64,000 nucleotides of DNA from Amphiscolops sp. MND2022 (lineage: Eukaryota): assembly GCA_964187785.1 (NCBI GenBank), contig OZ076409.1:25608001-25672000 (forward strand), read 5' to 3'. A program made the position numbers and the translations under genes. Below, piece by piece: positions 24,359-46,700 of this stretch; within the stretch, counting starts at the first letter, position 1, and each line of letters begins with the position of its first letter. The notes beneath the pieces are model-generated. The model was not told where the DNA came from, searched no databases, and saw only the letters and a list, made by a program, of their open reading frames with translations.

Positions 24359-24500
24359 TGTTATAGTTTAAGTAGTAATACGTAATTCTACTGAAAGTTC
24401 TGATACTGCTACTGTTTCAGGAATAAAGGGAAGCGAGACAAGAATCTATTTCTATGAAGACCATGTGGCAAAGTGGATGGGCCATCACTACGATGGTCTA
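24359..24500 (-). repeat. Gypsy 3' LTR, distal half
   Basis: Identical to 48404-48545; ends at the TA where the DNA transposon starts. Confidence 0.96.
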
Positions 24501-26007
24501 CATTACAGTGGGGTAACCGGCAACGAAAATGCAGATTTTACTCGTTGTGCGGCTCGGAAAATGATGGACATGAATGAATGTATGGGCCAAAAATGCCCAT
24601 TCGTTTCGCAGCCAAAACTGTTGCCTATTGATTTCCGAGGAAGCACAAGCTACGTATTGAGTTTCTTTGCAGGAGCGATGGCTTTAATTGCCCATGCATA
24701 CTCGTTGATGAGAGTAAATTGGGCAAGTAATTCCATCGCTTGCTCAAAGAATTTCAAGATTTAGATAGATCTGCCACTCGCTTCGGCCAATTCAATACAC
24801 TGCTTTGACATGGAAGTGTCTCAATATTTATCTACACATGCAGATTTTCAGTGTTCAGTTTTTGGTTTATCAAATTAATTCAGTTAAAATTAATTTAGTT
24901 ATCAAATTAAATTCTTAATTTTTTTTGACTAAGAAATATCAGCTCAACTATTATTTTCCCAGTATTTTAGGCGGGACAAATAAAATTGGCAATGACGAAA
25001 ATCTTCGTTCCGAAGCCGATATCTGCAGGAATATAACCCTAATAATTTTTTCGTTCCGGCCAATCACTGCAAGATTATTATCGTGATAAATTTTAGTTTA
25101 CTTTATTTTAATACTGTTTAATACTTAACTATTCTTTTCTTTTGTATATAATGGCAATTATGGTCGGGCAATTATGATAATTACAAATATTTTGATGTAT
25201 TATGATGTGTAGGTATATTATGATGTGTTAGTATGTAATTTTGATGTATTTCATTTTTTTGGAACTTATTAAATCAGTATTCTGTGAATCGTTTTTGTTT
25301 TGGGGCAAAAGAACAGTATAGTTGATATATAATACGAGTTTAAGTTTTTTCAATCATAACAAAAAATTGTTTGATAGTTGTACACTTACTACAGAAACAA
25401 CTTTATTCAACTATTCACCTTGATTGATATATATGGTTGTTTGATATTTATTAATTTAATTGGTATCCTGTGAATCGTCATTGATTTATTTATTGACAAT
25501 TAATCTAATCATCAAAAATCAGGATTCTTTGTTTTGGGCAAAAGAACAGTATAGTTGATATATAAAATGAGTTTAGGTTTTTTCAATCATAACAAAACAA
25601 TTGATTTTTTCATATTTATTAATTGAGTTGGTATCCTGTGAAACGTCATTGATTTATTTATTGAGAATTGATCAAATGATTGTTCTGATATTCACCATTT
25701 TTTCAAAGTGTGAACGTTCTTATCAGTTGTTAAAGTCAACGCTCCAAGAAGTGGAATGTTACTAAATGTTCAAAGTAATTTCACTTCCATTTTAGTGATT
25801 TAAGTGCACAAGTAAATCAGTAAGATTGTTGTAATACGGGAGCAAAAGTTTATTTGTTTTTCTGTTGATCAAACTACATGTAATCTTGATGAACGAAACC
25901 GAATACTCGCTTCTGATTGGACGAAATTCTTTCGTCGCATATTCCGATGAGGTCATATTGATACTGTGCGTGTAAAAGTTAGTCATTTGTTTTCAATTGT
26001 CATTGCC

Positions 26008-27098
26008 ATGTTAAAAACGTTACTTTTACGGATCCGGAAGCTGGACATTGAACTAGACGACTTACCGGACCATTTGAAACAGGTTAGAGTTAATCAGTTG
26101 ATTTATTAACTTTCAGGGTTGGCTTTTTAATACTTTGGTTTTAATAATTGCTTTCAAAATTTTTTCTTGATAAACGTTGGTGATTTCCTAAATAACATAA
26201 GAACAAACAACAAAAAAAAATTAGTTTCAAAACACAAAATTGAAATGAGTTTCACTAAACATACAAACGAATGCAAATAACATAAAAACAAAATTAGTGT
26301 CAAAGAACATAAAAATAAAACCGAATACCCGGTAAAACGATCGAACTCAGAAAATTTTATCTGTAATTTCCACACTTTTTTCAGTGAATCTTTTGAATTG
26401 TGTATGCTTTTGACCACTGATATTTTCTCATTAACAATTTTATTTTTATGTTTAGTGAAACCCATTTCATTTTAATGTTATTTGAAACTAATTTTGTTTT
26501 TATGTTATTTGCTCTTATGTTATTTGGGAATTCACCGATATTTCTTAGTCAAAAAAAATTAAATATAATGCTTATATAGAAATACACTGTTATTCTAATC
26601 TCAAAAGTTTTGCTCATTTGGTTGCCAGAAATTCGGTTACGGATATCAAAACGTGCCCATGGATTCCCGAGTTTTGGAAGGCCTTGTCGGTTACCCCACT
26701 TTAATGTAAATTTGGCAAATTTGTTGTTTTTTTTCAGCCCAAATTTAGGCCAAGCCTTCATCATGATAGAGAAGCCAGTACCGAAGCAGTTCTTCAAGAA
26801 CACCGCGGCGTTTCGACTGACAGAGATGAGCCAACCGTCTGTCAGAGTTAGTTTTTAACATGAACTTTTTGAAATCTTACATGTGTCTATGTTTTGACTA
26901 ATGCCCGCAGTTCATCAACCACTATTTGAACACATGAATAATAGGAAAACTAAATCCGAATGTTTCACGTTTGACTACGTTGCTGCAGGAAACGAGGAAG
27001 TTGAGACCGATGATGAACAAGTCACTCTCCAGGAGCACATTTTGACTGATAGGGATCAAATCAGCCTCCTCAACGATCCGACCGTCTGCCCCAGTTAG
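26008..27098 (+). CDS. Possible small three-exon gene (26008-26082, 26738-26846, 26989-27098), about 97 aa, unknown function
   Basis: GCCATG start; GT-AG introns with compatible phases (0, 1); exons 2 and 3 encode related peptides (VLQEH..TDRDEPTVCQ / TLQEH..TDRD..DPTVCP). No recognisable domain. Confidence 0.35.
26179..26536. repeat. Foldback/MITE-like element with ~90-bp imperfect inverted arms
   Basis: GGTGATTTCCTAAATAACATAAGA...TTAGTTTCAAA...TTTCACTAAACATA pairs with TATGTTTAGTGAAA...TTTGAAACTAA...TCTTATGTTATTTGGGAATTCACC. Confidence 0.65.
26684..26706. repeat. Internal copy of the large transposon's right TIR
   Basis: TTGTCGGTTACCCCACTTTAATG matches 43426-43448 at 21/23 nt, is preceded by the same CCGAGTTTTGGAAGGCC and is followed by TA. 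Confidence 0.9.
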
Positions 27099-27209
27099 TT
27101 CTTTTATATGATTCCTTGAGAGTGTTAATCGATATCTGCTTTTTGGAATATCCATTGGCATATTTTGAATTCAAAATTGACAAAGAAAACAAAACCCGAA
27201 GATAATATA

Positions 27210-27446
27210 CAGTAGTGATATTATTGAGAGCATCAAAAGGCAAATCTCAAAATCGAATATCTCTAAAACGGCAGTGGTTTATGAAAACTTATAAAAATAA
27301 ACGTATTCTAGATTTTTATCTAGTTTACAAATATGTTTGTTTGAAGATTTTTTCGAAAATACATGTTTTGGGATGACTTTGAAGTTTTTTTTTCACCTGC
27401 CGCAGACTTTGAAGCGGCTTTGTTGCTTTTAAAAATATCACCACTG
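27210..27446. mobile_element. MITE, Tc1/mariner-type ends (copy 1)
   Basis: TA|CAGTAGTGATATT...AATATCACCACTG|TA; same family as 37299-37478. Confidence 0.75.
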
Positions 27447-27535
27447 TATTTGACTAGATGACAATGACTAATATTCCAACAAAAATTATATAAAAACTGA
27501 TAAGTTAAAAACAAAGTTCGAGTTTATCAATGGTT

Positions 27536-29951
27536 TTACTCGGCATTACCGCCGAAAATTCTATTGGCTTCGGGGTCCATGTAATCAAACATCAGCTGCT
27601 CCAGGGGTTCAATTTTCCGCTTTGCAATAAGTAGCACGTAACGCGGATTATTTTTCAAGTATGTACATTTCAATTCGACCAGTTTCATGTTACAAGCTGG
27701 GTTGGTCTTTCCACCATCAAAGGTACTTGAGTAATTGCACAATCGAGCAAGGCACCTTCTGCCATCGTTGTGGATGGGGCATATTTCCGAGGTTGCATCA
27801 ATAATTCTTCCCGGCCTTGTTTTAACCTCGATGCAGTATTCTGGCTTGCGGTTCTCTGGGTCCAGACTGCAGTAGTAGTCGACGTTGTTCGTGTTTTCTT
27901 CTACATGTCCGTGGTAGTCAAAAATAACGTCATCCTTGTTAAATGGTTTGGTCGCGATTATTCCTCGACCCATTGTAGGATAGACAACATCGCAGACGCC
28001 TGGCCAGAATTGGTTTTCGCATCTATCTTTCAAGTCATCTTGGAAGTAAGGGGTATTGCAAAGTCTCCATTCTAGATTTGGATTGAATGCTTTTTTGCGC
28101 GAACTTTGTCGAGATCTTGATACCCCAGACATTCTAGAAGAAGCATCCATGACTCTCTTTACATCTGTGAAGTGGGGCCAGTTGACCAAGTTTGCAAAAT
28201 CGATTATTCTCTCTCTTTCTTTCGCAGGGTCAGCTAGTGATGTAGGGTAGTGGCTCTTGTATTCGGCCGCCCTAATATCTGCTCTTTGATGCCTAAGTGC
28301 TTGAATTCTTTTTTCGACTACTTTCATGACCGTTCTGTCATCGTAATGTCCGCTGGGCCTCAAATGTTTTTTGACTTCCATCATCAGGTAAGATTCAGAC
28401 CAAAATTCTTCTTCTGCTGAACATTTTGAAAGTGTCATCAGTTTGACAGTTCTTTCCAATCTGTCCATTTCACGTTCGGCTGGGTTTCTTGTCAAGTCGG
28501 AAAACTAGAACACGCAGATAGTTATTGAAATAAGCGAAAACTGCAAAAGGAAGATGTTTTTGATATTCCAACTTGTGATTATGTCTTATGGTTACTATCG
28601 ACTAATACAAATCAAACTGAGTCAAGTAATTCTTATCAAACAGTATTTGATTAGTTACCTGTTCAATCCGATTTCTTATGTTCCGCACTTTGAATTGTGT
28701 TTTTCCCCAGCTGTTGACAAAGAATGGCTCCGTCATGACGTAATATGGTGGTATCCCTTGACTGGGTGACTGCATGAACCTTTTTTTCTGGTCGATACCT
28801 TCAGGTTTTATGAAGTACGGTCGTACAGCTTCAAAATATATTAACATTGCTTCTCCAACAATGTGAGGAATTCTGAAGCTGTCCAAGTACCCAGCTTCAT
28901 CTTCAATTTGCAAGACTAACAAGTCACTTGAGTTAGAACTTCTATTGTGCTGAATTTGAGGGACCATTTGTAAAACGGCATGAGTTGTAATGCTCAAAAT
29001 TTTGCGATCTCTACACTTTGGAATAGAAAATTCCAGCAAATAAGCAATGAGGTCCCCAAACAAATTGGTTTTGTCAATGCTGGTTAGAGATTTTGCGAAT
29101 TTGAGTTGCTTCATTATGTCATAAAGGTCTGACAAGAGTCGCGCTTCAACAGTTGTGCATAATGTTAGGTGCACTGGGGTAATTTCTCGCAAATTTTTCT
29201 CATAGTTTTTGGGAACACATCGTTTACTTTTTGGGCCATGGTTTTCCTCATCATAATGGTTAAGTTTCCGCTTGTTCGCTATCTCCTGTTGGCATCTTTC
29301 CATGTTTGCCAAGGTGTCGTTGCAAGAACGGCTCAGCTGACTTGCCATGATATCACTCGGAGTTTGGCTCAGCTGACTTGCCGCGATATCACTTGAAGAA
29401 CGGCTCAGTTGGCTTGCCATGATGTCACTCGGAGTGTGGCTCGTACTGTCACTTGGGGTGTGGCTCCGTTGATTCGTCGTACTGTCACTCGGTGTGTGGC
29501 TCAGTTGATTCGTCGTACTGTCACTTGGAGTGTGGCTCAGTTGATTCGTCGTACTGTCATTCGGAGTGTGGTTCAGTTGATTTGCAGTGTTGATTAACAG
29601 AGGTGTCATTTGATTTGCAGCAAGTTGAGCTTGTACCATTATCGAGACGTCCGAAGGGCTATCTTCATAATTCACACCTTCTATATTAGAGATTTGTGAA
29701 AATATCCTTTGTTCAACTTGGGTGAAACTTGGCCAGCTTTTAGATGACACACTGGGTGATCCATACAACTGTTGTGTCGAACTAGATTGATCCAAGGGAG
29801 TACTCATGTAGTATGCAAAGTTGCTTTCATTCGGTTTAAATGGAGTCGAAAATCTTTCAAATGTTTCGTTTGGAGCAACAGAATTTGTCACAGCCGGGCT
29901 AGTCCCCAAGACAGTGTAAGAGAGAGATTTCTCATGTTGAGGAGGGTTCAT
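27536..29951 (-). CDS. SET-domain protein (SETD8/PR-Set7-like C-terminus); predicted exons 29951-28659 and 28504-27536, about 753 aa
   Basis: SET motifs GRGIIATKPFNKDDVIFDYHG, IIDAT, LARLCNYS, LLIAKRKIEPLEQLMFDY. A phase-0 intron (CAG|GTAACT ... TTCTAG|TTT) joins the two ORFs in frame. The N-terminal part has 12-aa Ser/Thr-rich repeats. Confidence 0.8.
29325..29585 (-). repeat. Coding 36-bp minisatellite (NQLSHTPSDSTT-like, about 7 units)
   Basis: GTGTGGCTCAGTTGATTCGTCGTACTGTCACT repeats in frame within ORF 28602-29951. Confidence 0.85.
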
Positions 29952-30566
29952 CGTTATGTAAAAGAGACTGTTTTCTAGCTACTGTTTGGATTGAATGGTG
30001 AGTGCTCAATCCTTTCCTTGAGCGATCCAAATTCGAACTAATTCAAAGACGCTTCGTCAATCAACTGTGGTATATTATAATTAAAGAAAAATGGTGATCT
30101 TCGTATTAAATAGTACATATATGATAATTATTCATTTCTGATAATGAATTATTTAATTATTGAAAAAAGTAGTACATACCGTTGGTAATAGCTTTGCGGA
30201 TGTGCTATTTAGATTTGCATGAAGATGAGCTCATTTAAGGACGCTTTTCAAATCAACTGTGGTGATAATTACCTGATGACGTGCGAACCTTCAATTATCG
30301 TTTCAAAATAGGGGATAAAAACCGAAGTATGAAATAACGTAAGCTAATTGGCATAAAATGAATTGAACTTTCGCCCATCCGTTTCCGAGTGATGAAAAGC
30401 AATGAAAAAGCCATGTATTTCTGCGTTTCAAATTGCCCATGCGTTTCCAAGTCTTAAATGGCATTATCATTTTGATGATTTGTTCGGATATCTGAAATAG
30501 AATTTAAAATGTCGAATTTTTTTCAAACATGTTTTTCACCAATACTAATCGGAATATGTGTTTCAG

Positions 30567-33500
30567 AATGCCGGAGAAAATTCAGCGAAAAAGTTGCGTG
30601 CCAGAGGCACATGTACAAAGACTGGGCACCAAGGAAGAGACCTGTTGAAGAACACCAGCTGGAGTTCACCTGCATTGCACAAAAAATTTACAGTCGGGCA
30701 AATTTTATTTGTCGCTTTTGTGGATGCGGCGAGAAAGACGGAGGACCGTTCTTTAGCTATCACAGGACCGCTCAACACTCCCTCGGAAGAACTTGCACCC
30801 TGAAAGTGTTTGAGTTGCAAAGGGAGGAATGGTACCCAGGAAATTTGTTGGAACCAACACCAGAAAACATCGAGGAATTGTGCAAGGAAAGTTCTGCTTA
30901 CGATTGCCTGAAGCAAAAATACAAATCGTTTTATCTTAAAGGGGAATCAGCTGTTCTTAAAAAAAAGCCCAAAGGCAATGTGCCAGGAGAGTACAGCTGG
31001 TCGGAAAAAAGACGGCGGGAGGGGAAAGGTTATTCCCATCGAATCAAAGACCTGATTAAAATCAAAGGGACCCCAAAGAAGAAGATCGAACACCCACGAT
31101 GGCAAGCGAGGATGGATTCGAGAAGAAGAAGAGAACAGAGAAGGACGTCACGTCGGTACCGTCGAGTTCACATCGAACCAGATTCTGACAGCGATGAAGA
31201 AGCCCTCCAGGAAAAGACCTGTGAGGAAGACGAAAGTGAAGAAGAAGTAGCCACACACGTTCGCCAAGGTACAATAAAATCCTATCGTTTTACTTATATC
31301 AATTTTTCGACATACCAGTTTGACTACTTGCCAAACGATTCCACTGATACTTATCGAAAATATTCGAAAAACATCCACAAATCTTCTCAATAACTTTATG
31401 ATGATTTTGACGATTTTTGTTTCAGATTCCGACAGCAATGAAGCCCTCCAGGAGGAGACCTATGAGGAAGACGAAAGTGAAGAAGAAGTAGTCACACACT
31501 TTCCCCAAGAAGAGAACCGTCAAGAAGACGAAAGTGAAGAAGAAGTAGCCACACACGTTCGCCAAGGTACAATAAAATCCTATCGTTTTACTCATATCAA
31601 TTTTTCGACATACCAGTTTGACTACTTGCCAAACGATTCCACTGATACTTATCGAAAATATTCGAAAAACATCCACAAATCTTCTCAATAACTTTTTAAT
31701 GATTTTGACGATTTTTGTTTCAGATTCCGACAGCAATGAAGCCCTCCAGGAGGAGACCTATGAGGAAGACGAAAGTGAAGAAGAATCAGTCACACACTTT
31801 CCCCAAGAAGAGAACCGTCAAGAAGACGAAAGTGAAGAAGAAGTAGCCACACACGTTCGCCAAGGTACAATAAAATCCTATCGTTTTACTCATATCAATT
31901 TTTCGACATACCAGTTTGACTACTTGCCAAACGATTCCACTGATACTTATCGAAAATATTCGAAAAACATCCACAAATCTTCTCAATAACTTTATGATGA
32001 TTTTGACGATTTTTGTTTCAGATTCCGACAGCAATGAAGCCCTCCAGGAGGAGACCTATGAGGAAGACGAAAGTGAAGAAGAAGTAGTCACACACTTTCC
32101 CCAAGAAGAGAACCGTCAAGAAGACGAAAGTGAAGAAGAAGTAGCCACACACGTTCGCCAAGGTACAATAAAATCCTATCGTTTTACTTATATCAATTTT
32201 TCGACATACCAGTTTGACTACTTGCCAAACGATTTCACTGATACTTATCGAAAATATTCGAAAAACATCCACAAATCTTCTCAATAACTTTATAATGATT
32301 TTGACGATTTTTGTTTCAGATTCCGACAGCAATGGAGAAGCCCTCCAAGAAGAGAACCGTCAAGAAGATGCAAGTGAAAACGTAGCCACACACGTTCGCC
32401 AAGGTATAATAAAATCCTATTGTTTTTCCTATATCAATTTTTCTACACCAATTTGTGAACTACTTGTCAAACGATTCCACTGATACTTATCGAAAATATC
32501 CGAAAAACATCCAATCTTCTCTAACATTATAATGATTTTGACGATTTTTGTTTCAGATTCCGACAGCAATGAAGCTCTCCAAGAAGAGAACCGTCAAGAA
32601 GATGAAAGTGAAAAAGTAGCCACACACGTTCGCCAAGGTACAATAAAATCCTATTGTTTTTCCTATATCAATTTTTCTACACCAATTTGTGAACTACTTG
32701 TCAAACGATTCCACTGATACTTATCGAAAATATCCGAAAAACATCCAATCTTCTCAATAACTTTATAATGATTTTGACGATTTTTGTTTCAGATTCTGAC
32801 AGCAATGGAGAAGCCCTCCAAGAAGAGAACCGTCAAGAAGATGCAAGTGAAAAAGTAGCCACACACGTTCGCCAAGGTATAATAAAATCCTATTGTTTTT
32901 CCTATATCAATTTTTCTACACCAATTTGTGAACTACTTGTCAAACGATTCCACTGATACTTATCGAAAATATCCGAAAAACATCCAATCTTCTCTAACAT
33001 TATAATGATTTTGACGATTTTTGTTTCAGATTCCGACAGCAACGAAGCTCTCCAAGAAGAGAACCGTCAAGAAGATGAAAGTGAAAAAGTAGCCACACAC
33101 GTTCGCCAAGGTACAATAAAATCCTATTGTTTTACCTATATCAATTTTTCTACACCAATTTGACTACTTGTCAAACGATTCCACTGATACTTATCGAAAA
33201 TATCCGAAAAACATCCAATCTTCTCTAACTTTATTATGATTTTGACGATTTTTGTTTCAGATTCCGACAGCAATGAAGCCCTCCAAGAAGAGAACCGTCA
33301 AGAAGATGAAAGTGAAAAAGTAGCCACACACGTTCGCCAAGGTACAATAAAATCCTATTGTTTTACCTATATCATTTTTTCTACACCAATTTGACTACTT
33401 GTCAAACGATTCCACTGATACTTATCGAAAATATCCGAAAAACATCCAATCTTCTCTAACTTTATTATGATTTTGAGGACTTTTGTTTCAGATTCTGACA

Positions 33501-36120
33501 ACGATGAAGAAGCCCTCCAGGAAGAGATCTGTGAGGAAGACGAAAGTGAAAAAGAAGTAGCCACACACGTTCGCCAAGGTACAATAAATTCCTATTGTTT
33601 TACCTATATCATTTTTTCTACACCAATTTGACTACTTGTCAAACGATTCCACTGATACTTATCGAAAATATCCGAAAAACATCCAATCTTCTCTAACTTT
33701 ATTATGATTTTGACGATTTTTGTTTCAGATTCTGACAACGATGAAGAAGCCCTCCAGGAAGAGACCTGTGAGGAAGACGAAAGTGAAGAAGAAGTAGCCA
33801 CACACGTTCGCCAAGGTACAATAAAATCCTATCGTTTTACTTATATCAATTTTTCTACACCAATTTGCCTACTTGTCAAACGATTCCACTGATACTTATC
33901 GAGAATATTCGAAAAACATCCACAAATCTCAATAATTTTATAATGATTTTGACGATTTTTGTTTCAGATTCCGACAGCAATGAAGCCCTTCAGGAAGAGA
34001 CCTGTGAGGAAGACGAAAGTGAAGAAGAAGTAGCTACACACGTTCGCCAAGGTACAATAAAATTCAGTTTTCATAAAATATTGTTTCTCAGTTATTTGTT
34101 AAAAGAGATGAAAGGTAAAAAGCAAAAAAAATCAAAAAATCTTTACTTTTAAAATTAAAATCGGATTGAGTTAATTTTTAAAAAAATCGGATTTTGTTCC
34201 ATCCATGTGTTCAAGGCAGTTTTACTAATACTTGTGCATATGTGTTTTTAGACACGACTTCGACTTGTTTACCTATATCAATATTACGTATCGAAAATAT
34301 TCGACAAACAACCAATCATCTCAATAACGTTAAATTGATTTTGACGATGTTTGTTTCAGATTCTGACAGCAATGAAGAATCCCTCCGGGAAGAGAACCGT
34401 GAGGAAGACGAAAGTGAAGAAGTAGCCACACACAATCCCCAAGGTACAATAAAATCCTATTGTTTTACCTATATCAAAATTTCTACATACCAATTTTACT
34501 ACTTGCCAAACGAATCCACTGATACTCATCAAAAGTATTCGAAAAACATCTACCAATCATTTAAAAAACTTTATTATGATATTGACAATTTTCGTTTCAG
34601 ATTCCAACAGCTACGAACAGGTTCAAGCAGAAGACGAAGAAGTTTCTCTGGTTGCATTTGTGGATGAAGCAGAGCATCATGAGCTGCTGGATGTAATCAG
34701 AGAATCTTCCGGGTCCGAGATGCGAGTTTGCTGCACCAATGTTACCAGCAGCGAAATAGAGGAGGAGCTGCAGCGGAAAAGAGCCTGTATTGTTCGAGGA
34801 CATATGGATGGTATGAAATTGCCCAACATCAACTTTGGAGCGCGAAGAAACATCTTCGAAGACTGTCTACACGCAGAAGATGTACAATTATCTGTCCGAA
34901 TGTACAAACCTGTCAGTGTTCGTTTTTGGCTTCGTCTTTTTAACTTCACCAATGAAAACCGAACATTTAAAAAATATTAGGGTTTTTATATTTTAAAACC
35001 AAAATTGTAGATCTTCGAAGTGTATTCTTTTTTCATATACAACACATGTCTATTTCAGCTGCAAAAACTCCTGTGTTTGACACTCTCAGGAAAAGATTTT
35101 GTAAAAGCCATTGAGTTTGGAGCTATGAGCGGCCCAATGAATGTCCTTGATCTTAGCTCCAGTCTCACAAAGAACTTGCATTTCGATGTACCAACGGCAG
35201 TTAAAGAACTTTCAGTGTCTCATTTATTCAATTTTGAGCTGGAGCAAAATTGCTATATTCTTCTCAGTCAAAAAGGTTCCATTACACCTTGGCATGTTGA
35301 CTACACGAATACCAGCGTCTTTTACCATCTTCTTCACGGTAAAAAAGAGTTTTTCATGATTCCTGGAACAGTTCGAAACCAAGAAATTCTCGAGAATTGG
35401 TGCATTGAGGCAACAAAACAAAATGTTTTCCTACCAAGTGACACCCACCTCCAAAGTCAAGTGTTTAAAGTGACGATAACAGGCGGCGAGTCAATGATCA
35501 TGCCAGCAGGCATGATACATATGGTCAGAACCTGTGCGGACAGCGTGGCCGTGGGATTCAATTTTCTCACCATCTGTGATCTAGGTAATTTTGAAATTCA
35601 GTTTTCATATAATTGTTTCTCAGTTGTTTGTTAGAAGAGATAAAAGGTAAAAAGCAAAAAAATCGAAAAAATCTTCATTTTTAAAATTAAAATCGGATTA
35701 AGTTAATTTCTCAAAAAAATTCGGGTTTTACTTCTTCTATGGGTTCGAGGCAGTTTTACTAATGCTTGTGCATATATGTTTTTAGACACGACTTTGACTG
35801 TTTACCAGAGGGAACGGGACAATGATGAACCTCTTGAGAAATGTTTCCCACATTTCTTATCGTTAATGACGAAAGTTATTCTAGAGAGTGCCATTGGGAA
35901 CTGTAGGCTAATGAAATGGGAGCTTCTGGCCAAAGCACTACATGTCCTCAGCTTCAATTCCAAAAATGACAGCCGATCCAAGAGCAATCGACGAAAATTT
36001 GTGCAAACTATCAACCGGTACATGTCTCTCAATTTCCCAAACAGGAACATATCATTAACTCACCTATTTCAAATTGTTGACAAAAAACTCGGTCGAAACA
36101 CTTTTTGGTCTCTTGATTGA
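30567..36120 (+). CDS. JmjC histone demethylase-like protein (KDM2/KDM7 type) with Cys/His-rich N-terminus and long acidic linker; at least 16 exons, about 1000 aa; start unresolved (ATG 30509 or an upstream exon)
   Basis: JmjC core YILLSQKGSITPWHVDYTNTSVFYHLLHGKKEFFMIP...MPAGMIHMVRT..DSVAVGFNFL with intact HxD...H triad. Exons 30567-31268, twelve repeat exons, 34601-34911, 35059-35584 and 35786-36120 join in frame at GT-AG sites. Confidence 0.85.
31180..34600 (+). repeat. Tandem array of exon+intron units (298 bp x3, then mostly ~231-241 bp)
   Basis: Unit: TTTGTTTCAG|ATTCCGACAGC...CACGTTCGCCAAG|GTACAATAAAATCC. Exons 31426-31566, 31724-31864, 32022-32162, 32320-32403, 32557-32637, 32793-32876, 33030-33110, 33261-33341, 33492-33578, 33729-33815, 33968-34051, 34360-34443. 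Confidence 0.92.
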
Positions 36121-36521
36121 TTAGTTCGTTGAAAACCATTTTCGAGATAAAATTTTTTGTTTTACATATTCTTAACCTTTATTATTTTATTTCATTGTAT
36201 TGATATGTATTATTATTAAATCTCGAAACTTGTTTTCAGCGAAGTAATTCAGCACTTGATGCAATTTCGCAGTTTACTGTAGTAATACTTTAGAATTTTG
36301 AATTCCAGTTCTTGGTCTTTGAAAGATTTGGTTTTATTCTTTCTTTTCGGTTCTTACTTAGTATTTTGCGCTGCTACTTTTTGGTACGTTTCTATTTTGA
36401 ATTTGTTTAAAACAATTCGAATGATTCAATTAAATTTTGACAATAAAAACAGGTAAAAATAATTTATTATTGTTCGAATCAAAGTTTTCACGATTTATCA
36501 ATTATGATTATCAAATGATTC

Positions 36522-39500
36522 TCAGTCTGATGAGTCTGAGGATGATTCATCGTGTTCTTTCTGAGCGTCATTCATTTTTTCTTGTTCGCGCTTCTTCAGC
36601 ATTTCTCGTCGTTTACGAAGTACCGATGTTATAGCTGAAGTTGTGTTTTGTAGTTCGGGATTCCTCTGAAGAAGGAAAATTTTGCGATGATCACGAACAG
36701 AAGTTGATGGGATGTCTGGCCCTGGTTTGAACGCAAAAGACTCCACATCCAAAATTGTTGAAGTTTCGATACTTTTCAAAATATAGTCAACGGATAGAAA
36801 CGTAAGTCCACGACTGGCCAAGTGTCGTAAAACGTAACTGGTTCGACTTGGTTCATTTAGTTTCCTTTTTTTGCATTTTCCTTTGGCCATAACTTCTGTC
36901 ACTTGTGGCAAAGAATCACACGACGTTGTTGCACTAATAAGATCTGTGTCATTTTGGAGAACCACGTAAATGTGTGGCAACTTGGAGTGTCTGGAGAGGA
37001 GAGTATTCAATGCTGCTCGTTCTAGAACTTTCCCTCCCGCTTTTTTGATAACTTTTTTGAGACACTCAGCGGGTCCAAGAGTTTTTCCATCTTGGTTTTC
37101 ATGTTGAATTCGTTGCTCTTTATTGAATTTCCCGTGCAGAAAGAATCTCGATCCTGGAGCAAACGGAATATTGTTTAGTTCTGTGAAAACAATTGGTTAT
37201 ATACCGAACTTCGAATATGTAACAACAGGTTTCTAAGGTGGTCCTTCCATTGCCGAACGTGCTTATTGCCGTATAATTCTAAGACGGTTTTGCATGTACA
37301 GTAGTGAGATTATTAAAAACTTAGTATTTTCGAAAACGCCTATTTTTACAGCGTGGTTTCATTGAGACTTTAATATAATTTCTCAATCAAAACATATCAA
37401 GTCCTTCAGTCAAATGCTTTTTGATAGATATTTGATTCTAAAATTTGCCTTTTGTTGCTTTTAATAATATCACTACTGTATTCTATTTTCTTTGCTACGA
37501 TCGTTCTGAACAGGTATGTAATTGCATCATTCAAAACTCACTGTTAAGCGAAGAACTAATTGCAAATAATAAGTTGAAAACATAAAAATAAGTAGATTGA
37601 GATTGGATTTCTCTCTCCGCCAGAGAGAATTCCAATCTCAATCTACTCACTAATTGCCACAGTTGTTGAATGCGCGGTCGTCACCGGCAATCGACATCTA
37701 TGGCAAGTAATACCAGCCAATGGCTACCACACACAATACCAGACACAATACCAGCCACTGGTTACCGAAGGCTGCACCAACAGCGGCGCAGAGAAGCGAA
37801 CCTGTATACCAAGAGCGAACGAGCGGCGGAACGACGGAACGTCGCACGAAGTAACCACTACGCCAGTGGTACTTGGAATCTGTTGCTGTTTTGAGGAAGT
37901 ATTTCATCCGAGTAACTTAGGACTAATATTTGTCAACGTGTTGCGGTGCAATACAAATATTCAGCAAAACTCAAGTCAAACATTTGTTCAACGATCCACT
38001 ACATTTATTTCGGAGTCGCAAGAAAAGCAAAATTCACACTATATTGTTGGTTTATCCAACTAAATTTCGCTAAATTTATACCACTTAGGTTTCATAACCA
38101 AAAAAGTTGGACGTGGGCATATAGGTACAAAAAAAATCCTTACCCAAGAAAAGGCGGGACTTCTCTCGAACTTTTCCAACGGGAATGATGGCTTTCTCAG
38201 TTGGTCCCAGGGAGTCTAAAAAAGATAGGTTCACCTCTATGGGTTCATTGAAAAGCCGTTGATGGCAAAGTGAGAGCTGTTCGTCGATTGTGCCTTCCAA
38301 AGTCGAAAACCGGAGACCAGAACAGAAAGTGAAAAACATTTCGAGAAACATGGGGTCGGCGTGTCGAACTGTCCCTCCCCCTCGCATGGTCTTTTGCTGA
38401 AAGTCTCTATGGACATGATGATTTGATTTTTCGGGGCCTTCGCACAGGTGGTTAAAGGGTGATTCAATGTAGCCTCCTTCTAACAGCTGGGGAATCAGGC
38501 ACAGTTTCAGTCTGTACGGTGTCAAACCTAGTTTTACATCGAACAGTACAATCGAAATGTGATAGTGGATTTCTGACCAGTATTTATAGTCGGAAAAGTC
38601 CTGTTCTTCGAATTTCTTCCTCGTCCTCATCAGCACGGTAAGCTGATTTAGTGACTTTCTCCAGAGTTCAGCTGCAACCAAAAGTTTCATTTGACATGGG
38701 CTTTCGATATTTTCGAATGAATTGGGATGAAGATTTTTCAACACATTCATGCTTGCACTTTTTGTACCCGACAAGGCTCCAACAGTCTTGTTCTCGGAAA
38801 AAACTCCTTCGAACAGTTCATGCTGAACACCAGCCTCAGCAAGTTCGTACATATCAGCAATGCCAGTGATAGCTTCTCTGCCACTAAGGGAAATGGGAGC
38901 ACATTTTTTGTTGCGTTTGTCAATGTCAAATTCGAAGCCAGGCTCTTTCCAACCTCTCTCGGTCAAATTGCGCTGAAAATTTTCCCTAATATAATCAACT
39001 GTAGCTGAGTCATCTTCAGATTGGAGAATTTTCAACTCCATGAACTTTCTAATGTCTCCCTCGACACACCTTGTTATTGCATGAGTGCCGTCGGGACAAA
39101 CGCATCTGATGTCTGGCAAAAACGTCAAACTTTCATGAGGAATGGTGGTTCGAAATGGTAGGCGAACATCACCTCGATGTCCACTTTTTTCGTGCACGGT
39201 TTCTGGTTTAACTGAATCGTCATTCCCTAGATACATCTGCAATTTTGATGGATTTTCTTCACTCTCCATGTGATCAACAGAGGTTCCAATGAGAAGGCGA
39301 TTTAGGAATGGTTGATCTCCACTGTATGTTAAAAGGACTCCGGCGTCATGGAGTTGTTTCGTCTGCTGGTAAAGCCAAGAGGAATCTTGCTCACCTAGTT
39401 CCAGGTACCCGACATTTTGCTCTAGCAACCAACGACCGTCGTGACCTGTAAACACGTATTGTAAAGTGTGCGAAGCTAACCTAGAGCTAAATTATATTTA

Positions 39501-40489
39501 AAGATTCAGCAGGACAAAATAGCAGAACATACCTTGGAAAACAGCAAAAGAGAAGAGTGCATCTGATGACTGATTGCTGATAGATGTTCCTTCGAGAAAA
39601 CGGAAGGCCATTCGAGTTTGATCCTTTTTCCCTATTTGAACACCATCTCCCCAAATATCAACTTTCAGACCTTGCAAATCAGTTCTTCCTTTGAACAGAA
39701 TGAATGTCATGACTTTGATAGCACGTACAAGATCAATTCTGAATCCCGAGAAAGTGTTTTTTGGTTTGAATAGGGATATAAACTTTGAAATCATCGGTTT
39801 TGACATCTCTTTGATCGCCGTATAACCAGGAATTAGTTGTTTTTGACCCAGTCCATCGACATGGAAAGTTTTTTTCAGCGTGTTGATCATATTTATCCAA
39901 CTACCAGTTTTAGTACAGATAAATATGTCTGACTTCAGCTTTTCGTACGATAAATAGTTTGAAAAAACACCCTTAACCAGAGCCTTGGCTTCAAACTGAT
40001 GCAGAGAGGTCTTCTGGGCCTTAGTATGAATCCGCTTTTGTTCTGTAGCTGCTAATGTTGCGAGAATTGTATGCATCTTCTGACTGAAACCTGATTCAGG
40101 TTTAGAAAACTGCTCCACTGGGATTGTTGGCATTGGAAGTGGATTGACAAAAGGTTGTGAGTCGGGAATTAGCTGCGGCGTATTTGGGAAAAAATAGGAC
40201 ACGTATCTTCTTCGTAATTGTGTCCATGGAAACCCACTTTGTAAACCACGAACAATTATTATTTGCAATATTCCAATTGCAACAAAGCAAGTTTTTTTTT
40301 GTTTATTACACAATCTTCGAGTTTTAATTCAGTTCCTTCAATTACTATTTCGATCGCGCTTTTCAGTTTTCGAGATTTTTCTCTTATAATATGCCCAGCA
40401 AAAACATCCAAAATTTTAGCATCCACAAAACTTTTTCCATCAATTGTTTCAGTGTAATCGTGCAGAAGCTTCTCGGGGTGTATTGTCAT
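36522..40489 (-). CDS. RAG1/Transib-like DDE transposase with probable C-terminal BRCT exon; predicted exons 40489-39533 (1-nt shift at the T9 run 40292-40300), 39445-38144, 37180-36522; about 970 aa
   Basis: Ordered motifs VDIWGDGVQIG (D1), YSGDQPFLNRL (D2), CPDGTH (DxxH), LTPYRLKL and CEGPEKSNHHVHR (E) parallel RAG1 CDGM, GYDEKLVR, IDALH, ITNYFHK and SEGNESGNKLFR. Both introns are phase 1 with GT-AG ends. The last exon has BRCT-like RFFLHGKF...LKKVIKKAGGKV...FLSVDYILKSI. Confidence 0.72.
37299..37478. mobile_element. MITE, Tc1/mariner-type ends (copy 2), in the predicted transposase intron
   Basis: TA|CAGTAGTGAGATTATTAAAA...TTTTAATAATATCACTACTG|TA; 19/20 TIR match. Confidence 0.8.
37591..37647. 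other. Near-perfect hairpin, 26-bp stem and 5-nt loop
   Basis: AGTAGATTGAGATTGGATTTCTCTCT-CCGCC-AGAGAGAATTCCAATCTCAATCTACT; one mismatch. Confidence 0.9.
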
Positions 40490-40594
40490 CCTGATTGTCG
40501 TACGTCGAAAGTTATATTGGAAGTTATTCTAGTAGTTGTTGTTTTTTCAAAAGCGTATTGACACTTTATCGTTTCCACACTAGCGTTTCCACTC

Positions 40595-40930
40595 TTGAAA
40601 TGCGTCTGCTGGTTCGCAAAGCGTTTGACAAAAAATTATAAAATTATCGTATTACGTTATTGATGTTATTGATTATATCGGAAATAAATCGAGTAATTGT
40701 AGTTTTAGCGTGTTCACACTCACGTGGATTTTGAAATGCGTCTGCTTGATCGAAAAGCGTTTGACAAAATATTATAAAATTATCGTATTACGTTATTGAT
40801 GTTATTGATTATATCGGAAATAAATCGAGTAATTGTAGTTTTAGCGTGCTCACACTCACGTGGATTTTGAAATGCGTCTGCTTGATCGAAAAGCGTTTGA
40901 CAAAAAATTATAAATTTATCGTGCTACGTT
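40595..40930. repeat. 136-bp tandem repeat (about 2.4 copies) between divergent transposase and Tudor-like genes
   Basis: TTGAAATGCGTCTGCT starts at 40595, 40731 and 40867, with near-identical units. Confidence 0.9.
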
Positions 40931-41198
40931 TTGGATGTTCCGTGCAAAAGTGTCTGGGGGTTTATTGTCATTTAAAATGCGTCTGACAATTAATTAATAT
41001 GCGTCTGACATTTAAAATTCATCTTATGCGTATGTAACGATTTGAGTCGATCAAACTCACTTGATAATCATTTGTCCCGATAACGATTTTATTTGCTCAA
41101 ACTTGCTTGATAAACATTAGTGGCAAATGCAATACTGAAAATACTCGTTTACGAAATTAAATTTCTTGAAAAATAAAGCACTAATTTCATTAATTGAA

Positions 41199-42767
41199 AT
41201 GGATTTCATCAGTGTTTTTGATATGAAAGAGCAAGTTCAAGTTTTGTATCCTGCAACAAAAATTTGGGAAGATGCTCGCATCATTGGGTTTGAAGGATCA
41301 TTTGGAATCCGAGTGAAATACCTCAATTGGCCCGATAAACTTGTGAAGCGATTCGGATCAGACAGAATTGAAGTGTCCCCCAACACACCCCAAAATTGCT
41401 GGCCGGTTAGAAAATGTATAGTATTACAAGATGTCCGCGGTCGCCGGAAATCCAAGAAGCCAGCAGAAACCGTTTTTGACATCCCCGACCCAAGAAAGCG
41501 CCAACTAGGGGACAGAATCTTTTTCACTGGGACATCACGGAAATCACCAGCGGACATTCCTAGTTTGGAAGAGGTTAGAAAAGATGCCGAGGAGTCGAAG
41601 CTGCTGAACTCGGGTTATGTTGTCATGAATGACCCATTCCAGCAAAATATGGCTGTTTCCTTCGACGGGCGCACAAAGGACATCCAGTTCATCGACTATG
41701 AACAAATTCGTCCGAAGAACTGGACTCATCCTGACACGAGGCAGCCTTCAGAGTTTGATTCGGAGCCCGAAGATGTCCAACCATCGCGGCAAAAAAAGAG
41801 AGTAGTAGAAACAGATGCAGAACCAGAACCCACTATAACCACTCCCAGACAGAAAATTGATATTGCCGCATATATTGCGAGTCTTGCCGAGAAAGACGAA
41901 CTTCTGGACATTGTACCCTGCGAAAATGGTATTGCATCAGCAGGTAAATGATCAATTTGATTATTACTAGTCTAACTTCTACGGTACTAAAAAAAATCAA
42001 ACAAAAAAACTGAAACCAAGTTTTTTGCCACGAGCGTCCTCTCGAAAAATTTACATGCTTATAGAAACTTTGTCGCATAAATCTTTCTCAAGTGGTTAAT
42101 AAATTATTATTACTAAATGAAACTGAATATTCGCATTCTGTTATCAGGTGACCACGTTACGATAAACATTAGGAGCACGGTCTTCACGATGAAATTGGAG
42201 AAGATATGGTTCGACGTGGAGATGAAGAAGGCCATGGCGAAACTGGTCGATGAAGAAGACAGATGCTACTCCATCACTTACCCAGCTGTAAAGCTAGTGT
42301 TGACAGAAGCAAACTACATGAAGCAGAAAGCTCTGGACTTGTCCGCAGCTTGTTCACCTGTGAATAGAGCTTTTCATTACCTGTCAGCTCTGAAACGTTT
42401 GGTCGGGATATCCCAGTCCAAACGCACAATGATGAATCAGGACATTTGCTTGGTTGACGAAATTTCCAAGAATATCTTTTTAATGGGTTCTGGACACCAA
42501 GTCAAATTTCATATAGATCCTGACTCAGAAAAGTTCCACAAAAATGCAGAATGGGACAGTACCCTAGGCCGACAATGGGATATGCTCCCACCAATCTTCC
42601 CTAAAACTTTCTGCCACATTATCAAAAGCCTAAAATTTTCAATTAACAACGATTTTCTGCTGAAAACTGTGCGAGTATCTATCGATTGTTTCCAGGACAA
42701 TTTAAATGGCGATGACGAATATCGTCGTTCCGCAGCCAATAATTGCAGAAGTCAGTTTAGTTTTTAA
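41199..42767 (+). CDS. Protein with N-terminal Tudor/chromo-barrel-like domain; exons 41199-41943 and 42148-42767, 454 aa
   Basis: FDMKEQVQVLYPATKIWEDARII...IRVKYLNWP matches the F..G..V....W..A.I....V.Y.GW Royal-family pattern. A phase-1 intron (CAG|GTAAAT...TATCAG|GT) joins two long ORFs. Confidence 0.6.
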
Positions 42768-43448
42768 ATTTATTCATTTTTTGTATCCATTGCCATAACA
42801 ATTGTGATATCTTTTCCATTATGTTTCTTAATTGAATCAGTCTCTTGTGAATCATTTTGTTTTCGATTTGGGGCAAAAGAACAGTAGTGGAGCGACATTG
42901 TAATAATTGACAACAATAACATTAAACAATTGAGTCAAACAAAAAGTAATGAGGATTAAATTGTTCAAAAAGACAAGCCCCCGGAAAGATCTTATGATAC
43001 CAATCTAGTCTTCTTGTAATCTCCTAATCTTCCTATTGATTGATATATAGTATGAGTTTAAGCTTATTCAATTATATTAAATGAGAGTTGTTCGATTTAA
43101 GGTGGAATGATGAGAAGCATGGAAGCTTGATAATCATTATTCAAATTTATTTCGAAAAAAAGTACCTGGGAAGGGTTTACTAAAATTCTGATAATCGGCA
43201 AATCCTTATCTTTAGTTGATTAGGTATATCTCGGACATTTTTTGATATGTATTCAAAGTTTCTATCAAATTGAAAGGCCACACTTGGTGGGAAACGAATG
43301 GACAGATTATGTTCAACAATTAGTTGACTTCGCCCATGCGTTTCCGAGATTTTCAGTTATGAACAACAAAACTCGCCCATGCATTCCCGAGTTTTTGCCC
43401 AACATTTTCCGAGTTTTGGAAGGCCTTGCCGGTTACCCCACTGTAATG

Positions 43449-43620
43449 TATAATGTTGCTGGTATCTAATGTACAAATATATATATCAACAACTACAAAC
43501 ATAAGACTGCCATTAATTGGTCACTTTAATTAATTAGATTGCAGTCACTTCAGTTTTAATAGATTGTTTTGTATTGCTCTTTTCTATTGTTTTGTTATGA
43601 CAGTTTGTAGCCCCGTTACA
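43449..43620 (-). repeat. Gypsy 3' LTR, proximal half
   Basis: Matches 48544-48715 except for one substitution (TTTTGTTATG vs TTTTGGTATG). Confidence 0.96.
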
Positions 43621-43705: not shown

Positions 43706-46700
43706 TTAGTTTTCGTCACTCGAGATTGTGATTACCTCTCTTTCTCCTTCTTCGTTTGTGTTTTCTATTCCACATATCATGACCGGGTTTCCATAGTAGT
43801 CCGGTGTGGTGCGGTTTCTTTTTGGTCGTTCATTGCTTGTATCTGTTTCGTTTTCACTTCCTGGTTCTTCTTTTGTCGGTTGTGGTTTTTCCCAGTTGAC
43901 TGTTGCTTTTATTGGTGTTTTTGGTGGGTTTGTTTGTTTTCTTTCATTTCTTCGTTGATCGTTTTCTTCTTCGTCTTCTGACTCTAATAGTTCTCTCCAA
44001 TTTGCGAGACGTTTGAATTCTGTTGGGATTTTCTTCTCTCTTCTTTTCTTTGTGTTTTGTTGTTCGTTGGTTTTGGTTTGTTTTATGTCCTTCTTGTGTT
44101 GTGGTGAATTCGTGTGTTTTGATTGGTTGCTTTGTTGGACCAATTGTAGTGGCTTCGCTATTTCACGTTTGCTGAATGTTTGCGCTGTTGATTTTCCACT
44201 TTCTTTCATTGTCAGCGTATGCTGTATTTCGCCTGTGATTCGTCCTTTCTTTCGCTTGTAGACTTCTTCTAGTTTTGAGCCCCGTGCTCTTTCTCTGACC
44301 ATTATTTCTGAATCTTGTTCTTGGGGAAAATCACTCATCTCCAGTTCGAAGTCTTTGTCGTTATCTGAAACAGAATTGTAGTTTGTAGTTGGTTTTGTAG
44401 TTATGATTTCTTTGATTCTAGTTAATTTTCTCCCTAGTTGTAGTTCCGCTGGAGATACGTTATTACTTTTTGGTGCATTTCGTATTGAGTATAATATTTC
44501 TGATAGTCCGGTATTTTCTTTATCCAGTATTATTCTTTTGTTGGTTCTCAGTCTTTCGTTTATTGTGCGTATAAGTCTTTCTACTTTACCATTACCGCGG
44601 TGATCATATATGGGGCATTTTATGTGTTGTATAAAGTATTTTTGACAGAATTGTTTAAATTTGTTACTTGTAAATGCTGTTCGCGGATCTGTTCGAATTT
44701 TTCTTGGGATGCCATTATCTGCAATATATCTTTCGAGGAATTCTATTACTTTATTAGTAGTTGGGGCTCGCATAAATTTTGCGTCCGGCCAGCCTGTTTT
44801 ACTGTCGATTGATACTATTAAGTATTTCTTTGAACTTTTTGCTATTTTGAATGGGCCAGCGAAGTCTATTGCAATTTCTTCATCTACTTCTTTTGGTGCT
44901 GGTAGTTTGCCAAATTGTTTTTGATTTAACATTGGTTTTATTGACTTACCTGCTGCTCTGCATTCTGGACATGTTTTGGTAAGTAGCTTAATGTCTCTGT
45001 GTATCTTTGGCCACCAAATATCGATAATTTGCCTTAACATTTGGTCACGTCCGGGGTGGCCCCAATGTAGCGAATTTTTGATGGGAGTCTGTAAGTTTTT
45101 CGGTATTATAAGACGATCATCCATGTAGAGTAAGTTATTTTCATCAATGGAGATTGAATTAAATCTCTCTCTCCACGGGCTTTCCAGAGCTTTGATTTTT
45201 GCTTTTGTAGGACTTTTTACTAATTTGATTAGTTTTTGTAGGTTTTCGTCATCGTTATAATTTGCGATAAGCATGTTTTCACCAATTTTGTTGGCTATTT
45301 CAACTTTCGATTCAAATTGCTTTGAGATTCGTTTACCTGCTAATGCGTTTGTTGAGTTGTTCTGTCCCATTTTGGTCAGTTGCGTTGTTTGCTTGCTCGC
45401 GTGTGTTTGTTCACTCTTGCTGCGTCTATCTTCGCGGTTGAGTTTCAACCATTGTCGTCCTCTGATTGGTCGAGTGAATTCTTCAGCTAAAATACTATTT
45501 ACATTATTTACATGGTTCACTGTGAACCAGTTGTTCCATAATTCTTTAGCTTTTACGCTTTCTCCTTCTATTTGTGATGGATGGCGTGAAAGGTAGTCAG
45601 CTATGCCAATTGTTCTTCCAGGTGCGTGGAATATGTCAAAGTCAAACAATAGTAGTCGATCTACCCATCGAGTGAGTCTACTCGAGTAGGTTTTATTGCC
45701 TTTATTTCCTTTCAGCACTGTTGCTAGTGCCTTGTGGTCTGATACCACTTGGAATTTTATTCCGTATAAGTAGTTTTTAAAATGCTCAATCGCCCATACA
45801 ACGGCGAGTAGTTCCAATTCGTTTATGGAATAGTTTTCTTCTAGTGGCGTTAAAAATCTGGATGCGAAATGTATTGGTCTCCATCCAATCTCGTCTTGTT
45901 GTTGTAGTACAGCGCCTAATCCGGCTTTACTTGCGTCGCATATTATTCGGATATTTTCGCTTTTCTTGAAGTGTCCCACTTCTGTTACTCTTTTTACCTG
46001 TTCGTTTATTTCTTTAAAAGCTTTTTCGTGTTTCTCCTCCCAGTTCCATGTTTTATCCTTTTTTAGTAAAGGTCTTAGTGGAAAGCAAAGTTGGGCTAAA
46101 TTCGGTATAAATCTGTTCATCTGGTTTACAGCTCCCAGATAAGAACGTAGTTCCTTTAGATTTTTCGGTCTAAGTTTTTCAGTTATTGCTTGTATTTTGG
46201 TGTTTATTGGGCTTATTCCATTTTGGGTTAATTTATATCCCAACCATTCAATTTCTTTTTGTGCTAAATTACATTTTTCCCATTTTAGTCTAACGTTAGC
46301 TTTATTTAGCTTTGTTAATACTGTTTTTACCACTTTGTAGTGATTTTCTTTTGATCCTTTTGTTACTACAAGGGATATCATCTAGGAATACGTACGTGTT
46401 GGGGATGTTTGCTAATTCGGTGTCCATGGCTTTTTGGAACTCGGTTGGCATTACTGTTAAACCGTAAAAACCTGTTACAAATTTGTATGTTCCAGTAGCT
46501 TTCCCTCCTATTATTTGGAAATTACAGTGTTTTGCTGTTTCTTTATTTAGTGGCTCTTGTCCGTACGCGTATTGCATGTCAAGAGAAGTATACCATGCTA
46601 TTCCTTCGTTTTCTGTATCTAATTGTTCTGCTACCATATCGACAAGGTGCTCTAGATTCGGCATTTGGTATTTATCTTTTACGAGTTCTTTGTTTAATGC

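Follow-up and report, generated by a model that had tools for sequence, protein, structure and literature searches.

Analysis of a 64,000-nucleotide stretch of Amphiscolops sp. MND2022 DNA (contig OZ076409.1, positions 25,608,001 to 25,672,000; hereafter, the window) revealed a whole copy of a DNA transposon, designated family A, that is bounded by terminal inverted repeats (TIRs) and has been recently amplified in the genome. An earlier sequence-only reading had proposed, at positions 38144..40489, a RAG1/Transib-like transposase with atypical ends (CATTAC, flanked by a 2-bp TA target-site duplication, TSD). We regard the following as the probable interpretation: a recently amplified 19-kb element with CATTAC ends that duplicates any 2 bp of its target, is likely moved by cut-and-paste by a RAG1/Transib-type transposase devoid of zinc motifs, carries genes that likely manage chromatin, and belongs to an undescribed lineage beside the CMCT group, the named groups having been compared by their descriptions.

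A comparison of the window with itself revealed a perfect 25-nt inverted match between positions 24499-24523 and 43426-43450, comprising the TIR and a TA dinucleotide. The element splits a long terminal repeat (LTR) of a Gypsy retrotransposon. Within the window, the segment 24359-24500 is 100% identical to 48404-48545 of an intact sister LTR (48404-48715), and the two halves of the split LTR overlap by one TA, as expected for the empty site. Because the intact LTR provides this empty site, the boundaries of the element are fixed at 24501-43448. The CATTAC ends are therefore real and lie well outside the 38144..40489 interval. The Gypsy element is young, its LTR pieces being 99-100% identical, and is flanked by a 5-bp CTAAT duplication; it runs over positions 24359-48715 of the minus strand, and its gag and pol frames span 46305-48461 and 43709-46381.

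Further copies were sought in the genome, which comprises 1.07 Gb in 1929 contigs. Transposase exon 2 had at least 92 matches (from 91 of 1030 candidates scored), and an 18-nt TIR core had 166 (100 of them listed), as compared to none for a reversed control. Over ~4.4 kb of the transposase region, identity to the window is 99.6-99.9% for the 19 other best copies. Of four copies taken whole, three align with the window copy from end to end at 99.7-99.8% identity; the alignment of the fourth is interrupted by a 375-bp gap within the region of tandem units described below. Short copies of 0.15-1.6 kb carry both ends, as expected of non-autonomous derivatives. Four further families with both ends were found: B (17.8 kb), C (19.9 kb), D (17.2 kb), and E (18.8 kb). 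Their TIRs are 22 bp long and usually start with CATTAC (in family A, CATTA is present at 46 of 50 ends), and their transposases are 37-42% identical to that of family A (37-61% among all five families). Family F, with the same genes, and the decayed family G were also detected, in both cases with ends not seen.

Ends were paired if they lay on opposite strands and 0.3-28 kb apart. An exact 2-bp duplication flanks 17 of 18 family A pairs and both of two additional pairs; in families B, C, D, and E matching duplications flank 9/9, 7/9, 1/1, and 1/1 pairs, respectively. One family B copy with no right end within 40 kb and one family D copy with no intact left end were not counted. In total, 37 of 40 paired ends across the five families have a matching 2-bp duplication, while a match is expected by chance in ~7% of pairs. 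The duplicated dinucleotides of the 37 matching pairs are of 12 kinds (TT 7, TA 5, AC 5, GT 4, AT 3, and others). Thus, tabulation of duplications over genomic copies, which had been suggested as a check, upholds the 2-bp length; the TA sequence proposed earlier does apply to the window copy, with TA on either side and one TA in the empty LTR, but is not general. A TA-specific target was accordingly ruled out (TA in only 5 of 37 matching pairs), as was a Tc1-like element starting with CAGTG after a TA, given that 46 of 50 ends have CATTA as part of the element and that the empty LTR site sets the boundary. Both family C copies with unmatched duplications border a long AATC satellite. In these copies (among loci L097-L102) the satellite extends over several kilobases on one side, and the right flank of one copy fits the left flank of the other, possibly as a result of rearrangement or misassembly.

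The transposase gene is located on the minus strand. Two long open reading frames (ORFs), 39501-40328 and 38088-39491, hold the motifs GDG, SGDQ, DGTH, TPY, and EGPE, all in the order in which they had been likened to the RAG1 core around D600, D708, and E962. We take D600 and D708 to be the numbers of RAG1 catalytic residues; E962 of RAG1 is named in PDB titles. Intronless relatives of 1017 amino acids (aa; L071, family B) and 1003 aa (L088) align serially with three frames of the window and, together with GT-AG sites delimiting introns of 87 and 990 nt, suggest a three-exon gene extending from 40489 to 36522. The earlier gene extent was too short: position 38144 is a predicted splice donor, and a third exon (37153-36522) encodes a BRCT domain. 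This exon was missing from the sequence-only account, as were the conserved chromatin-related cargo genes considered below; both are present. The BRCT domain is continuous with the transposase core in the intronless relatives, and 12 of the 32 scanned database homologs, which include many fragments, have BRCT matches with E up to 0.05. In a distant sub-branch (P0035, P0039, P0040, P0041, P0044, P0051, and P0054) the BRCT domain is followed by a basic, Trp-containing segment that looks HMG-box-like by eye and produced no Pfam HMG-box match at E 1. A 26-bp hairpin is present inside intron 2, at 37591-37647.

A profile search returned 455 homolog clusters (clustering level 50% identity) with E of 0.001 or better, 151 of them reaching 1e-30 or better; the members checked have no informative names ("hypothetical protein"). 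In a 113-row alignment, five residues, numbered as in the L071 core, are near-invariant among rows covering each position: D108 (47/48), D188 (74/75), D258 (75/77), H261 (78/79), and E483 (61/64). The window transposase carries equivalents of all five. An AlphaFold2 model of the L071 core has a predicted local distance difference test score (pLDDT) of 91.5 and a predicted template modeling score (pTM) of 0.91. In the model, D108 is in the first long RNase H strand, D188 is just past a later core strand, residues 259-467 form an all-helical insertion, and E483 is in the next helix. Foldseek returned 47 matches to the model at E 0.001 or better, and all matches listed were RAG1 (E 4.7e-07), RAG1L, or HzTransib. 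In an independent VIA search, RAG1 was aligned over 410 residues with a Z of 18.2 and a root-mean-square deviation (rmsd) of 3.9, followed by RAG1L (Z 17.6), HzTransib (13.7), P element (12.8), ISCth4 (9.4), Hermes (8.2), and Tn5 (7.6); in a second VIA comparison, Z reached 20.2 for RAG1 and 17.8 for HzTransib. The structural check against RAG1 and HzTransib that had been proposed thus produced a DDE-fold match, for the family B relative rather than the window protein, and the relative's model predicts a RAG1/Transib-type DDE fold for the transposase.

This similarity is not visible at the level of sequence. The transposase core had no sequence match in Pfam or PDB. No scanned protein matched RAG1 Pfam models, newer RAG1 subdomain models (PF26xxx) being perhaps absent from the Pfam copy used, and no PDB RAG1 match was obtained with 13- or 113-sequence profiles at E 10. 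No match at E 0.001 was obtained in a viral fold library, and one scan of viral contigs revealed no relative. A scan of the genome with PF12940 was also negative and is a weak test, since the control likewise matched nowhere. The structural matches to RAG1, RAG1L, and HzTransib have only 10-14% sequence identity. These data bear on the possibility that the element is a derived Transib (or RAG1L-only) transposon nested inside Transib that lost its zinc site, had its TSD cut to 2 bp, and gained the BRCT domain and cargo. That RAG1, RAG1L, and HzTransib are the best structural matches, that Atlas lists RAG1_RNase_H-bearing clusters at 0.91-0.94, and that TSDs and termini vary within Transib (bioRxiv 10.64898/2026.08.26.747230, available text) speak for such an origin. 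We nevertheless consider it unlikely: RAG1L and Transib are on average 26% identical (PMC9435367, available text), yet neither Pfam nor PDB gave a RAG1 sequence match here, zinc motifs are unconserved, and the ends are CAT rather than CAC. Two results were left out of these considerations. A quick family tree (47 of 113 rows, family members only, no outgroup) was not used for placement, and the two top unnamed Atlas clusters for the core, commonest in Cnidaria, which are not shown to be the same family, were not used for host range.

According to the available part of PMC12730594, C(2)C and H(3-4)H motifs are common to all CMCT lineages, and CMCT elements have 5'-CA..TG-3' termini and 2-5-bp TSDs. 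The element has CA..TG ends and a 2-bp TSD; the zinc motifs are not conserved. Of the 64 rows covering the stretch after the second Asp, 2 have C(2)C (CxxC), and 5 of 63 rows have H(3-4)H, in no case at a conserved alignment column, in agreement with the sequence-only reading, in which the RAG1 zinc ligands could not be seen. The distant sub-branch likewise lacks both motifs. In a control, Transposase_21-type proteins of the same genome show CxxC, plus HxxxH where the frame reaches it. With Transib/RAGL the element shares a predicted RNase H-fold DDE core with a RAG1-type insertion domain (family B model, Z 18.2-20.2), and does not share the zinc ligands, the 5-bp TSD, the CAC heptamer-like TIR start, or sequence-level homology. 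The divergent lineage within or beside the Transib/RAG/CMC group that had been proposed is thus supported by the RAG1-best predicted fold of the relative, the CA..TG ends, the 2-bp TSD, and the unconserved zinc motifs. The arguments for a separate lineage are the loss of the zinc motifs, the absence of similarity in sequence, the BRCT domain, and the cargo; the TSD is not among them.

Could the family already be named in Repbase or Dfam under EnSpm/CMC, either as an animal EnSpm with 2-bp duplications or as PlavakaB? CATTA is one base away from both CACTA and CATCA, PlavakaB has CATCA termini and 2-3-bp TSDs (PMC12730594, available text), and animal CACTA-related elements make 2-bp duplications (PMC1636069, available text). 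However, the same part of PMC12730594 describes such groups as having retained C(2)C and H(3-4)H, which are unconserved here. Further, no scanned protein matched the Transposase_21, Plavaka, or DUF1258 Pfam models, and EnSpm/Transposase_21-type proteins of the same genome did not match the family profile (negative hidden Markov model scores; hhalign probability 0.2% with a shallow, 6-sequence profile). We therefore give this alternative little credence. No description of such an element was found in the open literature, a scope that leaves Repbase, Repbase Reports, and subscription journals outside. The preferred placement is a zinc-less lineage beside CMCT that is probably undescribed and would be set apart from Chapaev, Mirage, Plavaka, ESTA, and Lanisha by their descriptions.

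The same three additional genes are present in all five families, in varying order. The SET domain encoded by cargo gene 1 had SETD8/KMT5A as 13 of 13 PDB matches, and in an intronless 680-aa relative it is fused to the 5' part. The 5' exon is homologous to a family D protein, and the fold was transferred on this basis. A model of the family D pre-SET region (pLDDT 84.5, 16-row alignment) matched XerH, XerA, and XerD with Z 8.7-9.4 over model residues 1-168 only (XerH 174-300), and ranks 1-11 were all tyrosine recombinases, recombinase-fold proteins, or topoisomerase IB. Foldseek found no match to this model at E 0.001, and an Atlas search with the domain gave no usable match. The conserved Arg of the first tyrosine recombinase (YR) box is present in family A only. 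A Crypton or other YR element was rejected, since there is no complete YR catalytic domain and the TIRs and TSDs are of the DDE type. In an apparently separate case of SET cargo, three EnSpm-type (Transposase_21/DUF1258) elements of the same genome (L190, L196, and L197; G000 C10, C1, and C11) encode SET either within the transposase frame or a short distance upstream of it (Pfam E 2e-08 to 2e-06).

The JmjC domain of cargo gene 2 is closest to KDM2A, PHF8, and KDM7A (PDB KDM2A/PHF8 E 2e-18 to 7e-18), and its HxD...H iron ligands are intact in all five families. The 5' exons of this gene probably run from ~30479 through tandem acidic mini-exons at 31207-34680. The tandem units are 231-298 bp long, each apparently consisting of a short acidic exon and an intron, and one other copy has a different number of them. 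In families B, D, and E, JmjC is preceded by a C2H2-like segment, and the region adjoining this segment is common to C; no match to this region was found in family A. For cargo gene 3, the Tudor-like profile had 2ldm as its best match (E 0.023) and 3p8d as the second (E 0.13), with Agenet at E 0.024; both PDB entries are presumably PHF20 Tudor chains. The second, ~200-aa domain of this protein had no Pfam or PDB match better than E 0.1. No kelch (RAG2-like) match was found among the ORFs of the element, where the ~200-aa domain is the part without assignment. On two of the 13 metagenome contigs (L131 and L135), the Tudor-like gene and the transposase are neighbors in head-to-head orientation, and a third contig has a weak match; the 13 contigs, of 1.1-6.9 kb, are too short to hold ends. 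In the window, a 136-bp tandem repeat (40595-40939) is located between the two divergent genes.

Since the ends, the duplications, and the predicted fold all fit, we favor transposition by cut and paste, in which a RAG1-type enzyme would act with a stagger of 2 bases. By analogy with RAG, Transib, and hAT, a transposase dimer would pair both 22-23-bp ends, and the element would be excised via hairpins on the flanking DNA, as in RAG and hAT (PMC1131882, available text). The His of the DxxH motif would occupy the place of RAG1 H795 (named in the available text of PMC7204232). The 3' ends would then be joined to the target with a 2-base stagger, and gap filling by host repair would produce the 2-bp duplication. 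Judging from homology, histone lysine methyl marks would be written by the SETD8-like domain, erased by the KDM7/KDM2-like JmjC domain, and read by the Tudor-like domain. The half recombinase fold may bind DNA rather than recombine it, as the match covers only the part of Xer before the catalytic Tyr. The SET, JmjC, Tudor-like, and BRCT parts likely manage chromatin around copies of the element, most likely allowing escape from silencing or access to chromatin.

SETD8 monomethylates H4K20, and PHF8 can remove that mark; H4K20 methylation guides the choice of repair pathway. A bolder proposal can be made in which the element represents a new, superfamily-level, zinc-free lineage of giant RAG1-fold transposons, and the fixed set of SETD8-like writer, PHF8/KDM2-like eraser, Tudor-like reader, and transposase-fused BRCT forms a self-encoded H4K20-methylation/DNA-damage module that would steer repair of the excision gap to sister-chromatid copying and so raise copy number. 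We consider this a long shot. At the other extreme, the cargo genes could be passengers captured once by an ancestor and devoid of any role, or the recombinase-fold protein could be a second mobility enzyme. The NH-to-NY change in the family A SET domain and the reality of the YR fold fit this explanation, the activity of the cargo being only predicted. Yet none of the five families has lost any of the cargo genes, which remain long open frames of ~24-60% identity in differing orders, with the JmjC HxD...H intact in each; the YR match stops at residue 168 of the model, short of the C-terminal, catalytic portion of Xer; and a DDE-type duplication accompanies every dated insertion. Idle passengers or a second enzyme thus appear improbable.

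Several observations weigh against the interpretation we favor, that of a chromatin-managing, zinc-less element beside CMCT. The modeled protein is a family B relative, 43% identical to window exon 2, and not the spliced protein of the window; the active-site geometry was judged by secondary-structure position. There is no EnSpm, Chapaev, Mirage, or Plavaka structure among the fold matches, and we know of no PDB structure for any of them; RAG1 would thus likely rank first for any CMCT member. Transib relatives are reported with 3-bp and TA duplications, TSDs and termini being labile (bioRxiv 10.64898/2026.08.26.747230, in the part available), so the ends alone do not exclude Transib. Three of the 40 paired ends lack a matching duplication. 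The SET domain of family A has NY where those of B-E have NH. SET cargo is not unique to these families, being carried also by EnSpm-type elements of the same genome and by oomycete HarbingerS/MuDR (PMC12730594, available text). Finally, the reading frame of exon 1 is broken in 18 of the 20 copies as assembled, among them the window copy.

The frame break in exon 1 falls at an A-run at 40292-40300 (9 A in the window). Among the 20 copies the run has 9 A in 11, 8 A in 8, and 10 A in 1; exon 1 is open in the 10-A copy and in one 8-A copy without a further A. An assembly error in an undercalled 10-A run is the likeliest cause. Programmed frameshifting at the run is not favored, since families B, E, and F read through in one frame. 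The 8-A copies have no other change in common, and a 9-T run at another site has the same length in 4 of 4 copies, but one in family D varies.

If our interpretation is correct, a recently active zinc-less branch would be added to the group that gave rise to the V(D)J recombinase, allowing one to test the purpose of the RAG1/Transib zinc module and what sets a 2-bp versus a 5-bp target stagger within one fold. An animal DNA transposon would also have retained, despite deep divergence, a writer and an eraser of histone methyl marks together with a likely reader, and would offer a tractable example of host chromatin being edited by a transposon. Intronless relatives with open frames (family B, 1017 aa; 22-bp ends; natural size 17-20 kb) are directly assayable.

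Coordinates of the element and its features in the window (exon joins of the transposase are predicted)
Feature	Position	Strand	Remarks
Whole DNA transposon copy, family A	24501..43448		18,948 bp; from the TIR pair and whole-copy alignments
Left TIR, CATTACAGTGGGGTAACCGGCAA	24501..24523	+	23 bp, starts CATTAC; from window self-comparison
Right TIR	43426..43448	-	23 bp, matches left TIR perfectly
Left 2-bp TSD	24499..24500	+	TA in window copy; empty site shows one TA
Right 2-bp TSD	43449..43450	+	TA
Gypsy LTR, left piece, split by transposon	24359..24500	-	resumes at 43449-43620
Degenerate internal copy of right end	26664..26708	+	93% over 45 nt; in 4/4 other copies
Cargo gene 1, 3' exon	27539..28504	-	helical region and SETD8/KMT5A-like SET; Pfam SET E 2.5e-08
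Cargo gene 1, 5' exon	28605..29978	-	low-complexity stretch, then N-terminal half of tyrosine-recombinase-type fold
Cargo gene 2	35011..35631	+	JmjC, KDM2/KDM7(PHF8)-like, HxD...H intact; Pfam JmjC E 1.1e-09
Transposase exon 3	36522..37153	-	C-terminal BRCT domain; Pfam BRCT_2 E 3.3e-06
Transposase exon 2	38144..39445	-	second Asp 39315-39317, DxxH 39090-39083, helical insertion domain, Glu 38430-38432
Transposase exon 1	39533..40489	-	ATG at 40489; N-terminal region and first catalytic-position Asp 39645-39647
WGDG	D codon 39645-39647	-	exon 1
SGDQ	D codon 39315-39317	-	exon 2
PDGTH	D 39090-39092, H 39081-39083	-	exon 2
TPY	38520-38522	-	exon 2
EGPEKSN	second E 38430-38432	-	exon 2
Cargo gene 3, exon 1	41139..41948	+	Tudor-like domain (weak assignment); transcribed away from transposase
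Cargo gene 3, exon 2	42117..42764	+	conserved ~200-aa domain, in 5/5 families

The internal copy of the right end lies 2.2 kb from the left TIR and could define a nested mini-element; subterminal inverted repeats are present within the left end of the element, at 24915-26562. Outside the element, the window contains an exon of a host POU-homeodomain gene (18174-19067, minus strand; class IV-like by eye) 5 kb from the insertion, a 45-bp inverted pair at 14370-15582 that may be a miniature inverted-repeat transposable element, and, at 1-4225 on the minus strand, a second LTR-retrotransposon-like region with gag zinc knuckle and protease frames and a GC content of ~0.53.

Among known systems, the element resembles RAG1/RAG1L (ProtoRAG) in predicted fold over the whole core (RAG1 residues ~460-1008; Z 18-20, rmsd ~4 over 410-420 residues) and in the order of D, D, DxxH, and E. 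Unlike them, it is only 10-14% identical in sequence, is without conserved ZnC2/ZnH2-type ligands and any recognized RAG2-like gene, makes a 2-bp instead of a 5-bp TSD, has a CAT instead of a CAC end, and carries a C-terminal BRCT domain. With Transib (HzTransib; Z 13.7-17.8) it shares a single DDE transposase and short TIRs; it differs in being a 17-20-kb element with four genes, in its unconserved zinc motifs, and in its 2-bp TSD, the canonical Transib TSD being 5 bp, with 3-bp and TA cases reported in the available text cited above.

The CA..TG ends, one base from CACTA, and the large, multi-gene organization are reminiscent of EnSpm/CACTA, as are the 2-bp TSD, found also in animal TRC elements (PMC1636069, available text), and the SET cargo of same-genome EnSpm-type elements. 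In contrast to EnSpm/CACTA, there is no Transposase_21 match or profile similarity, and the same-genome EnSpm-type proteins keep CxxC and HxxxH. The remaining parallels come from the available part of PMC12730594. PlavakaB has CATCA ends, a 2-3-bp TSD, and a carried epigenetic enzyme, TET/JBP; ESTA has a TA TSD, RAG1 similarity by HHpred, and TET/JBP as well. PlavakaB, ESTA, and Lanisha, compared by description only, are reported there from fungi (Lanisha, from moss), with C(2)C and H(3-4)H said to be retained, whereas our element gave no Plavaka Pfam match and has SET, JmjC, and Tudor-like cargo. HarbingerS and MuDR elements with SET in oomycetes and plant Vandal elements likewise carry chromatin or anti-silencing genes on DNA transposons; they belong to other transposase superfamilies and carry a single type of cargo, while the element described here combines a putative writer, eraser, and reader.

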